Part shown: positions 49,493 to 53,696 of the stretch, piece by piece | Layout: each line of letters begins with the position of its first letter | Numbering within the stretch: the stretch's first letter is position 1 | Source: Escherichia coli | Lineage (GTDB): Bacteria > Pseudomonadota > Gammaproteobacteria > Enterobacterales > Enterobacteriaceae | NCBI RefSeq assembly: GCF_003334305.1 | Contig: NZ_QOWS01000026.1 | Direction: 5' to 3' (one strand) | Length of the DNA: 64,000 bases | The notes under the pieces: generated by a model | The model's database searches: none | What the model was told of the DNA's origin: nothing | Seen by the model: only the letters and a program-made list of their open reading frames with translations | Position numbers and translations under genes: made by a program

Positions 49493-50902
49493 ATGCAACG
49501 AGGGATAGTCTGGGTAGTCGATGACGATAGTTCCATCCGTTGGGTGCTTGAACGTGCGCTCGCTGGAGCGGGTTTAACCTGTACGACATTTGAGAACGGC
49601 GCGGAAGTACTGGAGGCGCTGGCGAGCAAAACGCCGGATGTGCTGCTTTCAGATATCCGTATGCCGGGAATGGACGGGCTGGCGCTGCTCAAGCAGATTA
49701 AACAGCGCCATCCAATGCTTCCGGTCATCATTATGACCGCACATTCCGATCTGGATGCTGCCGTCAGCGCCTATCAACAAGGTGCGTTTGATTATCTGCC
49801 CAAACCGTTTGATATCGACGAAGCAGTGGCGCTGGTTGAGCGCGCTATCAGTCATTACCAGGAACAGCAGCAGCCGCGTAATATTCAGCTTAACGGCCCA
49901 ACGACCGATATCATCGGCGAAGCGCCAGCCATGCAGGACGTGTTCCGTATTATCGGTCGGCTTTCGCGTTCTTCTATTAGCGTGCTGATTAACGGCGAAT
50001 CCGGCACCGGTAAAGAACTGGTCGCTCATGCCCTGCATCGCCACAGTCCGCGCGCCAAAGCGCCGTTTATCGCGCTGAATATGGCAGCTATCCCAAAAGA
50101 TTTGATCGAATCAGAACTGTTTGGCCACGAGAAAGGCGCGTTTACTGGCGCGAATACCATTCGTCAGGGGCGTTTTGAACAGGCCGATGGCGGTACATTA
50201 TTCCTCGACGAAATTGGTGATATGCCGCTGGATGTGCAGACGCGTTTGCTGCGCGTGCTGGCAGACGGTCAGTTTTACCGCGTTGGCGGCTATGCGCCGG
50301 TGAAAGTGGATGTGCGGATTATCGCTGCCACTCACCAGAATCTCGAACAGCGAGTGCAGGAAGGTAAGTTCCGTGAGGATCTGTTCCACCGCCTGAACGT
50401 TATCCGCGTTCATCTGCCGCCGCTGCGCGAACGTCGGGAAGATATTCCCCGTCTGGCGCGCCATTTTTTACAGGTTGCCGCGCGCGAACTGGGCGTAGAA
50501 GCGAAGTTACTGCATCCGGAAACCGAAGCTGCTCTGACGCGTCTGGCGTGGCCAGGCAACGTGCGCCAGCTGGAAAACACCTGCCGCTGGCTAACGGTGA
50601 TGGCCGCCGGGCAGGAAGTGTTGATTCAGGATTTGCCCGGCGAACTGTTTGAATCAACGGTTGCGGAGAGTACTTCGCAAATGCAACCGGACAGCTGGGC
50701 GACGCTTCTTGCGCAGTGGGCAGACAGAGCGCTGCGTTCCGGTCATCAAAATCTGCTTTCCGAAGCGCAGCCAGAGCTGGAGCGGACGTTACTGACGACC
50801 GCGTTGCGACATACGCAGGGGCATAAACAGGAAGCGGCGCGGCTACTCGGCTGGGGCCGCAACACCCTGACGCGTAAGTTAAAAGAGCTGGGGATGGAGT
50901 GA
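49493..50902 (+). CDS. glnG: Nitrogen regulation response regulator NtrC
   Basis: 469 aa from ATG 49493 ([25 protein letters not shown]...); receiver domain, AAA+ GESGTGKE and GAFTGA motifs, C-terminal HTH. Confidence 0.96.
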
Positions 50903-51013
50903 TTCACAGCTTGTGTGTAAAGATTGATTATTGAGCGCAAATTGCTGGTATTTTACGCTTTACTGTTCCGATAAGTTCAGTATGATCTTGCCCGGAAAAC
51001 GGGGAGAGTCATT

Positions 51014-51124
51014 ATGCTGGAATCAATAATTAATCTGGTATCGAGTGGCGCAGTTGACAGCCACACACCGCAAACTGCCGTTGCTGCCGTGCTGTGTGCC
51101 GCAATGATTGGGCTGTTTAGTTGA
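51014..51124 (+). CDS. yshB: Small membrane protein YshB (36 aa)
   Basis: MLESIINLVSSGAVDSHTPQTAVAAVLCAAMIGLFS preceded by GGGGAGAG SD; matches the small ORF annotated between glnG and hemN in K-12. Confidence 0.7.
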   Translation: MLESIINLVSSGAVDSHTPQTAVAAVLCAAMIGLFS

Positions 51125-51158
51125 GTTTCAGATTGCTGATGAAGTGCTCTTTGTTCAT

Positions 51159-51246
51159 GCCGGATGCGGCGTGAACGCCTTATCCGGCCTACAAAAGCAA
51201 TATTTTCAACAGGTTTTGTAGGCCTGATAAGCGTAGCGCATCAGGC
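51159..51246. repeat. REP/BIME (two inverted REP units)
   Basis: gccggatgcggcgtgaacgccttatccggcctac and gtaggcctgataagcgtagcgcatcaggc. Confidence 0.85.
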
Positions 51247-51313
51247 AATCTTGTTCTCAGCACATTGATGGCGCTTTCGTTTTCTACTTTGTAAACGAAG
51301 CGCCATTCACTAT

Positions 51314-52687
51314 TTAAATCACCCGTGAGAACTGCTGCATCCGCGCTTTCTGGCGCAGATAGGTATCAAAGCACATGCAAATGTTGCGGATCAGCAAGCG
51401 ACCTTTCGCCGTCACCTGTATTCCCTTCTCATCCACATCCACCAGCCCATCTTTTGCTAACGGGGCGAGCAGCTTGAGATCTTCCGCAAAGTAATCAGCG
51501 AAGTGCAAATCCCACTGTTTCTCAATAGGGGCGTAATCCAGACGGAAGTTGCAGATGAGCGACTTAATCACATCGCGGCGAATACAGTCATCACGCGTTA
51601 GCGCAATACCACGCCACAGCGCATTGCCTTGTTCATCCACTTGCTGATAGTACTGCTTCAACTCTTTCTGGTTCTGCGCGTAGCAGTCGCCAATCATGCT
51701 GATGGCGGAAACGCCCATCCCCAGCAGATCGGTATCGCCCTGAGTGGTGTAGCCCTGGAAGTTACGATGCAGCACGCCTTCACGCTGGGCCACCGCCAGC
51801 TCGTCATCCGGACGGGCAAAGTGATCCATACCGATAAACTGATAGCCCGATTGCGTCAGGAAGGCGATGGTTTCCTGCAGGATATCGAGTTTTTGCTGCG
51901 GACTCGGCAGGTCAGCATCTTTGATTTTGCGCTGAGCAGCAAAAATGGTCGGCAGATGCGCGTAGTTAAAGACACTCAGACGATCGGGGTTCAGCTCCGC
52001 CACACGTTTCAGGGTAAAGGCGAAACTCTCCGGCGTCTGTTTCGGCAGGCCGTAAATCAGGTCGATGTTGGTGGAGGTAAAACCAATCTCACGCGCATGG
52101 TTAAGCAGTGCAAAGATGAACTCTTCATCCTGCTCGCGGTTAACCAGACGTTGCACTTCTTTGTTGAAGTCCTGCACGCCCATGCTCAGGCGATTAAAGC
52201 CTTCGGCGCGTAAATGATCGAGTACATCCAGTTCGATTTCCCGCGGATCGACTTCGATCGAAATCTCCGCATCGGCATTGAACTGGAAGTTTTCGCGCAG
52301 CAGCTTCATCAGGCGGCTGATTTGCGCTTTATTCAGATACGTCGGCGTTCCGCCGCCCCAGTGCAATTGGCTGACGTGACGCCCGGCGAACAGCGGTGCA
52401 CGATGGACGATTTCTTGCTCCAGCGCGTCCAGATACTGATCGGCCTTGTGCTGCTGGCGAGTAACAATCTTATTGCAACCGCAGAAGTAACAAAGCTTAT
52501 GGCAGAACGGGATATGTACGTAGAGAGATAATGGACGCTCAGGATAGCGCGCCACGGCTTGTAAAAACGCCTGTTCGCCGAAGTCTTCTGAAAACTCCAG
52601 CGCGGTCGGGTACGAGGTGTATCGTGGCCCGGAATAGTTATATTTCTGGATCAGGGCCAGATCCCAGTCGATTTGCTGTACAGACAT
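51314..52687 (-). CDS. hemN: Oxygen-independent coproporphyrinogen III oxidase (radical SAM)
   Basis: 457 aa from ATG 52687 (MSVQQIDWDLALIQKYNYSGPRYTSYPTALEF...), radical-SAM CxxxCxxC (..FCHKLCYFCGC..). Confidence 0.95.
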   Translation of the reverse strand: MSVQQIDWDLALIQKYNYSGPRYTSYPTALEFSEDFGEQAFLQAVARYPERPLSLYVHIPFCHKLCYFCGCNKIVTRQQHKADQYLDALEQEIVHRAPLFAGRHVSQLHWGGGTPTYLNKAQISRLMKLLRENFQFNADAEISIEVDPREIELDVLDHLRAEGFNRLSMGVQDFNKEVQRLVNREQDEEFIFALLNHAREIGFTSTNIDLIYGLPKQTPESFAFTLKRVAELNPDRLSVFNYAHLPTIFAAQRKIKDADLPSPQQKLDILQETIAFLTQSGYQFIGMDHFARPDDELAVAQREGVLHRNFQGYTTQGDTDLLGMGVSAISMIGDCYAQNQKELKQYYQQVDEQGNALWRGIALTRDDCIRRDVIKSLICNFRLDYAPIEKQWDLHFADYFAEDLKLLAPLAKDGLVDVDEKGIQVTAKGRLLIRNICMCFDTYLRQKARMQQFSRVI

Positions 52688-53451: not shown

Positions 53452-53696
53452 AAGAAAAAAGGCGACAGATTACTCTGTCGCCTTTTTTCCTGACTCATAA
53501 CCCTTAACGGGTCTTACAATCCTTGCAGGCCGCCAACACACCCTGTTTTTCCTTTAGCCGGAACAATCCGTGTTGATTCCATTTCCGTTTAATTACGTCT
53601 CCGGACGTTTGTCTTCCTGACAATCCTCTGTCTTCGCCTCCTGGCGCTCCTGACCCTCATCCTGAGTCATTGTTCCTGTTAGCGTCCTCGCTCTAT
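53452..53696 (-). ncRNA. csrC: CsrC small RNA (CsrA-sequestering)
   Basis: Minus-strand region dense in GGA/AGGA motifs ending in the hairpin ggcgacagagtaatctgtcgcc plus U-tract, 67 bp upstream of yihI; ends are approximate. Confidence 0.75.

Follow-up and report, generated by a model that had tools for sequence, protein, structure and literature searches.

The described proteins closest in design to YshB are MgrB, which binds the sensor kinase PhoQ, and CydX, an oxidase subunit. Like YshB, both are smaller than 50 aa, consist mainly of one hydrophobic helix and come from a small gene that stands alone, and both were tested beside YshB as substrates of the protease RseP (PMC10470546). There is no sequence similarity between YshB and either protein, and YshB differs from them in lacking basic residues, in carrying its hydrophobic helix at the C terminus and in having an amphipathic N-terminal helix followed by a conserved polar hinge. 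Peptides of the Hok family of type I toxins are also small and hydrophobic and, like YshB, were class I RseP substrates in one screen (PMC10470546); unlike YshB, they have basic residues and a longer C-terminal tail, whereas yshB belongs to the core genome, sits in one copy at a syntenic position and lacks a cognate antisense RNA. Abundant, conserved microproteins are numerous in enterobacteria, and YshB is an example. The discovery of its gene is credited to Hemm et al. 2008, and Bomjan et al. 2019 are cited for the findings that the Salmonella homologue promotes intracellular replication and virulence and that its loss lowers fitness in host cells.

In the window (the whole 64,000-nt stretch of DNA analyzed), an ORF with an ATG start occupies positions 51014..51124 on the + strand; its 36 codons plus TGA encode the 36-aa protein MLESIINLVSSGAVDSHTPQTAVAAVLCAAMIGLFS. 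The initial annotation had described a 36-codon gene at exactly these positions, had located it in the glnG-hemN gap and had matched it to yshB of K-12, and all three statements hold. Upstream is glnG (ntrC; 49493..50902, +), with its stop codon 111 nt before the yshB ATG, and downstream is the convergent hemN (51314..52687, -), as given by the ORF list and the RefSeq annotation. An exact-sequence look-up with the window protein returned YSHB_ECOLI (UniProt) and many records named ‘YshB family small membrane protein’, and RefSeq labels the ORF between glnG and hemN ‘yshB: YshB family small membrane protein’. The NCBIfam equivalog NF033841 (small_YshB) matches residues 1-36 over profile positions 1-40, with 72.1 bits against a cutoff of 34 (E = 2.4e-20). 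In K-12 MG1655, yshB (b4686) lies at the same place downstream of glnG, with the same promoter and Shine-Dalgarno sequence (SD), and its product is identical, the coding sequences differing by a single synonymous third-position base in codon 36; identity also extends over the 133 nt that precede the gene. The downstream spacer differs from that of K-12 by indels in its REP elements, and the window therefore represents an E. coli strain other than K-12.

The yshB promoter plus CDS is found in exactly one copy in 5426/5426 complete E. coli genomes (≥95% identity), and a yshB annotation is present in every E. coli record among the matches listed. A Pfam-A scan of a library that apparently did not include PF28018 gave no family for the window protein, and PF28018 (‘YshB’) is assigned to a 37-aa homologue (P0029) in precomputed annotation. 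Searches of solved structures (PDB sequence profiles), defence-system families (PADLOC) and phage families (PHROGs) gave no match to YshB. The ORF is the already known, annotated gene yshB, and we regard its identity and its coding status (backed by coding statistics, the family match and detection by mass spectrometry) as virtually certain. The locus thereby serves as a positive control for annotation, in which a gene under the usual ORF cutoffs was recognized from raw sequence and each independent line agrees; existing knowledge of yshB is left unchanged. In our overall account, to which we assign a probability of about 0.85, yshB is a genuine coding gene whose product would be a tail-anchored microprotein of the inner membrane and would bind a larger membrane protein.

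The size of the ORF alone is not beyond chance, since 68 ORFs with 20 aa or more overlap the 4.5 kb around it, and the case for yshB therefore rests on its SD and on comparative evidence. Its above-chance status comes from the SD and, decisively, from cross-species conservation. A profile-guided scan with one genome per species yielded 61 loci (60 of them complete and one truncated at a contig end) from four Enterobacterales families, representing the genera Escherichia, Salmonella, Citrobacter, Klebsiella, Enterobacter, Kosakonia, Pluralibacter, Phytobacter, Trabulsiella, Leclercia, Izhakiella, Erwinia, Brenneria, Serratia and Sodalis. A homologous ATG, a G-rich SD and an open frame of 35-41 codons are present in 60/60 complete loci; conservation of the reading frame in relatives, proposed in the initial annotation as a check on the gene, is thus what was found. 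All indels are of whole codons, with the insertions falling in the linker just before the HTPQTA motif.

Substitution statistics over all pairs of the 61 distinct coding sequences distinguish the annotated frame (pS 0.576, pN 0.140, pN/pS 0.24, Jukes-Cantor dN/dS ~0.14, no internal stops) from the +1 frame (pS 0.218, pN 0.255, pN/pS 1.17, internal stop in 43/61) and the +2 frame (pS 0.077, pN 0.308, pN/pS 4.0, internal stop in 55/61). Diversity by codon position in the annotated frame is 8.0/4.0/19.5, with synonymous sites close to saturation. Top-down mass spectrometry has detected native YshB (PMC12529367). The ORF could in principle be a chance frame in intergenic DNA or in a purely non-coding small RNA: short ORFs are common here, and the yshB transcript is short and abundant and has a long structured 3' UTR, as do many small RNAs. 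This reading is contradicted by the codon periodicity, by a low dN/dS that is confined to the annotated frame, by the restriction of indels to whole codons and the retention of ATG and SD throughout, and by Rfam, which gave no match except one that is partial and REP-derived. Because of the frame conservation, the substitution pattern and the protein seen by mass spectrometry, we consider it refuted and give it practically no weight.

Transcription of yshB starts from a conserved sigma-70-type promoter of its own, just after glnG. A promoter consensus scan placed the -35 hexamer TTTACT at 50959..50964 (+) and the -10 hexamer TATGAT at 50981..50986 (+), separated by a 16-nt spacer. CTTTAC is invariant in the 60-locus alignment, which extends to Serratia, Brenneria and Sodalis, and the -10 region reads GTATGAT or GTATTAT in nearly all loci, with GTATCAT in one and GTAAGAT in two; this region keeps a constant distance of 28-31 nt to the ATG. 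The promoter is conserved to this degree even though the synonymous sites of the gene are almost saturated. From this promoter geometry we infer a transcription start near 50993-50994 and a leader of ~20 nt; three published transcriptome data sets yielded no measured start for yshB. The strong SD reported in the initial annotation corresponds to GGGGAGAG at 51001..51008 (+), with its GGAG core 7 nt from the ATG. Pairing with the 16S anti-SD is predicted at -8.1 kcal/mol, better than for 98.3% of the 2174 ATGs on both window strands, which places it in the best 1.7%, and a G-rich tract occupies this position in 60/60 loci.

Just upstream of the -35 hexamer, a segment conserved in most Enterobacteriaceae, AGCGCAAATTGCTGGTATTTTA (50933-50957), contains the small dyad GCAA-A-TTGC followed by a T-rich run; it could act as a UP-like element, bind a regulator or weakly terminate glnG. 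The idea that the conserved AGCGCAAATTGCTG..TATTTT terminates glnG was considered and not adopted, as it would form a stem of just 3-4 bp around a 7-nt loop. Immediately 3' of the glnG stop, at 50903-50931, is a second promoter-like site (TTCACA, 17 nt, GATTAT), part of which (GTGTAAAGATT) is conserved in the 60-locus upstream alignment.

Between the -10 hexamer and the SD, RNAfold predicts a possible stem-loop, CCCG-GAAAA-CGGG (4-bp stem; 50991..51003, +), with a 3' arm that runs into the SD. A stem-loop is predicted at this place in most Enterobacteriaceae loci; in Serratia and Sodalis it is weak or missing. Compensated variants occur at L050 (CCAG/CTGG) and L060 (CCGG/CCGG), together with a shifted stem at L026 and 5-bp stems at L034 and L054; most pairs are invariant across loci. 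RNAalifold, run on a MAFFT alignment, found no consensus pairs, in part owing to a register shift from varying loop lengths. The inferred transcription start would likely remove the 5' arm of the stem, and the segment may equally be a GC-rich discriminator instead of a stem-loop.

At the other end of the transcript, yshB mRNA is abundant and ends at a hairpin that abuts the convergent hemN. The 3' UTR contains an inverted REP pair (51159..51246, comprising 51159-51192 and 51218-51246; with a partial Rfam naRNA4 (REP-derived) match at 51153-51189), followed by a terminal hairpin (51267-51307) within the feature at 51267..51310 (+) that includes the mapped 3' end. The region downstream of the yshB stop, with the REPs and the terminal hairpin, folds very stably (z = -9.2). 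Term-seq in K-12 placed a 3' end on the yshB strand at 4053422, with means of 120,790 and 86,472 reads in two of three growth-condition sheets (PMC7815308, supp. 1). The sequence at this K-12 position is exactly the terminal hairpin of the window, where the end maps to 51310, 4 nt before the hemN stop. K-12 has an extra REP in its spacer, with its own Term-seq 3' end at 4053570. A 441-nt query matched a median of 39 sites in each E. coli genome.

The REPs of the yshB 3' spacer, which differ between the window and K-12, give way to other hairpins outside this genus: the interval of 32-100 nt that separates yshB from hemN there contains a strong GC-rich hairpin, often a textbook bidirectional terminator. 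On the hemN strand of K-12, a Term-seq 3' end lies 29 nt from the yshB stop and is weak (857 reads vs 120,790; PMC7815308). The 3'-end positions imply that the convergent yshB and hemN transcripts overlap by ~200 nt (51125-51310; K-12 4053422-4053618). This overlap, the closeness of the yshB 3' end to the hemN stop and the presence of a strong hairpin between the two genes in every genus could be read as signs that yshB mRNA is also regulatory, with its ~190-nt 3' UTR and hemN repressing each other through antisense pairing or transcriptional interference. We consider such regulation improbable: read-through on the hemN strand is weak, the spacer sequence is largely mobile REP DNA and is not conserved between genera, some lineages have another gene between yshB and hemN, and a shared bidirectional terminator explains the arrangement more simply.

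As for the protein, YshB contains no Lys or Arg, two acidic residues and one His. The single hydrophobic helix of the initial annotation corresponds to its C-terminal segment, in which residues 21-35 are uniformly hydrophobic (mean Kyte-Doolittle 2.37). AlphaFold2, run with a 40-sequence alignment, predicted helices at 2-15 and 17-35 (mean pLDDT 75). Residues 1-11 can form an amphipathic helix (hydrophobic moment 0.50) with L2, I5, I6 and V9 on one side and E3, S4, N7, S10 and S11 on the other. M1, H17, P19, Q20, T21, A22, A25 and C28 are invariant among 40 distinct sequences and are all present in the window protein, while L2, G12, T18, A24, V26, L27, A29 and A30 are nearly invariant. The window protein thus displays the family hallmark, a length of 35-41 aa with H-(T/A)-P-Q-T-A followed by a C-terminal hydrophobic helix with an invariant Cys. 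Salmonella YshB (P0003) differs from it at three residues (V23L, M31L and I32V). YshB proteins of Kosakonia, Brenneria, Serratia and Sodalis (L013-L021, L039, L056, L058, L059 and L061) have an Ala/Gly/Val-rich insertion of 4-5 residues between the helices, which indicates that the linker before HTPQTA is the only region that tolerates changes in length. A helical wheel places T21, A22, A25, C28, A29, G33 and S36 within one 140-degree sector, with the more variable V23, M31 and L34 opposite; judged from sequence, such a one-sided sector of small residues is the pattern expected for a helix-helix packing face.

RseP cleaved tagged YshB in 4/4 assays, in vivo and in vitro and including assays with purified enzyme, which made YshB a class I substrate; other unidentified proteases also cut it (PMC10470546). 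RseP substrates are normally single-span proteins with an N-in/C-out topology, and since RseP cleaves YshB, we infer the same placement and this route of turnover for YshB. The YshB used in these assays was tagged at the N terminus, and the tag may impose an orientation. TOPCONS gives the opposite topology, N-out/C-in; in Table S1 of PMC10470546, which holds no experimental topology for YshB, the span (15-35) is credited to TOPCONS, and most other entries to TMHMM. The positive-inside rule offers no guidance, as YshB has no Lys or Arg.

Within the overall account, we propose that YshB would be a two-helix, tail-anchored inner-membrane microprotein with its N terminus in the cytoplasm, made up of an N-terminal amphipathic helix (2-15), an invariant hinge (H17-T-P-Q-T-A22) and a C-terminal Ala/Cys/Gly-rich hydrophobic helix that reaches the last residue. 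The hinge and the small-residue face (T21, A22, A25, C28, A29 and G33) may pack against a larger inner-membrane protein and modulate it, intramembrane cleavage by RseP may limit the level of YshB, and the physiological output in Salmonella could be growth inside macrophages. The packing of a helix against a larger membrane protein is borrowed from MgrB and CydX, and by this analogy the specific partner-binding mechanism is a tentative proposal that we place somewhat short of even odds; the papers examined name no binding partner for YshB. A bolder version, which we see as a long shot, would make YshB a dedicated accessory subunit of a conserved inner-membrane complex, with the interfacial His17 and the mid-membrane Cys28 giving a ligand (metal, haem or redox-active thiol) or a specific contact, and/or would have yshB translation gated by the stem-loop overlapping the SD. 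If true, the accessory-subunit version would explain the purifying selection on a 36-residue peptide across Enterobacterales and its role in Salmonella growth in macrophages.

The main alternative to partner binding is that YshB has no specific partner and acts as a monotopic or interfacial peptide, its amphipathic and short hydrophobic helices changing bulk membrane properties, or as a membrane filler in the stress phase. The purely hydrophobic core of only ~15-16 residues is short for a membrane span (the AlphaFold2 helix covers 17-35), the published span came from TOPCONS and not TMHMM, the N-terminal helix is strongly amphipathic, and the predicted level of YshB is very high (>11,000 copies per stationary-phase cell), all of which would suit such a role. 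Yet an invariant polar hinge, together with a Cys on a conserved small-residue face, is more typical of a specific protein-protein interface, and cleavage by RseP indicates a membrane-embedded helix that reaches the active site. We therefore consider a non-specific role unlikely.

YshB could also be compared with Hok, TisB or Ibs, as a type I toxin-like peptide that damages or depolarizes the membrane. Its small size and hydrophobicity, its grouping with HokB and HokE among the class I RseP substrates (PMC10470546) and the finding that plasmid-encoded, C-terminally His-tagged YshB is not detectable fit this comparison. The genomic and expression data do not: yshB is a core gene present once at a single syntenic position, in every complete E. 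coli genome searched and across Enterobacterales, it has a strong conserved promoter and a very high predicted copy number, and its product is without basic residues. In Term-seq the sole nearby antisense 3' end comes from the weak hemN read-through and lies 3' of the CDS, and there is no dedicated antitoxin RNA; Bomjan et al. 2019 are cited as linking loss of yshB to reduced fitness of Salmonella in host cells. Type I toxins vary in copy number or are patchily distributed, and they come with a cognate antisense RNA; yshB shows neither feature. A toxin-like role is very improbable in our judgment, and we treat it, like the non-coding and antisense-regulatory readings, as minor beside a membrane microprotein that binds a partner.

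The neighborhood of yshB is well preserved on its upstream side, where the glnG-yshB gap is ~112-116 nt in nearly all of the 60 loci. hemN is convergent and downstream of yshB in 59/60 loci; in Brenneria it is not near yshB. In the P0029 lineage, yshB and hemN are separated by a gene for a 542-aa SBP_bac_5 solute-binding protein (L064-L066, 3795-5423, -), and yshB is still 100 nt downstream of glnG. Since Brenneria and the P0029 lineage break the hemN linkage, the stable linkage is that of yshB to the 3' side of glnG, and a necessary functional link between yshB and hemN, which synteny might have suggested, was rejected on the same grounds. The conservation map (the HTPQTA hinge, Cys28, the small-residue face, and linkage to glnG and not hemN) supplies concrete residues to mutate. 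Beyond yihI, RefSeq marks a frameshifted, short ‘hypothetical protein’ pseudogene at ~53504-53670 (-), in an identical strain (L001, 5125-5291).
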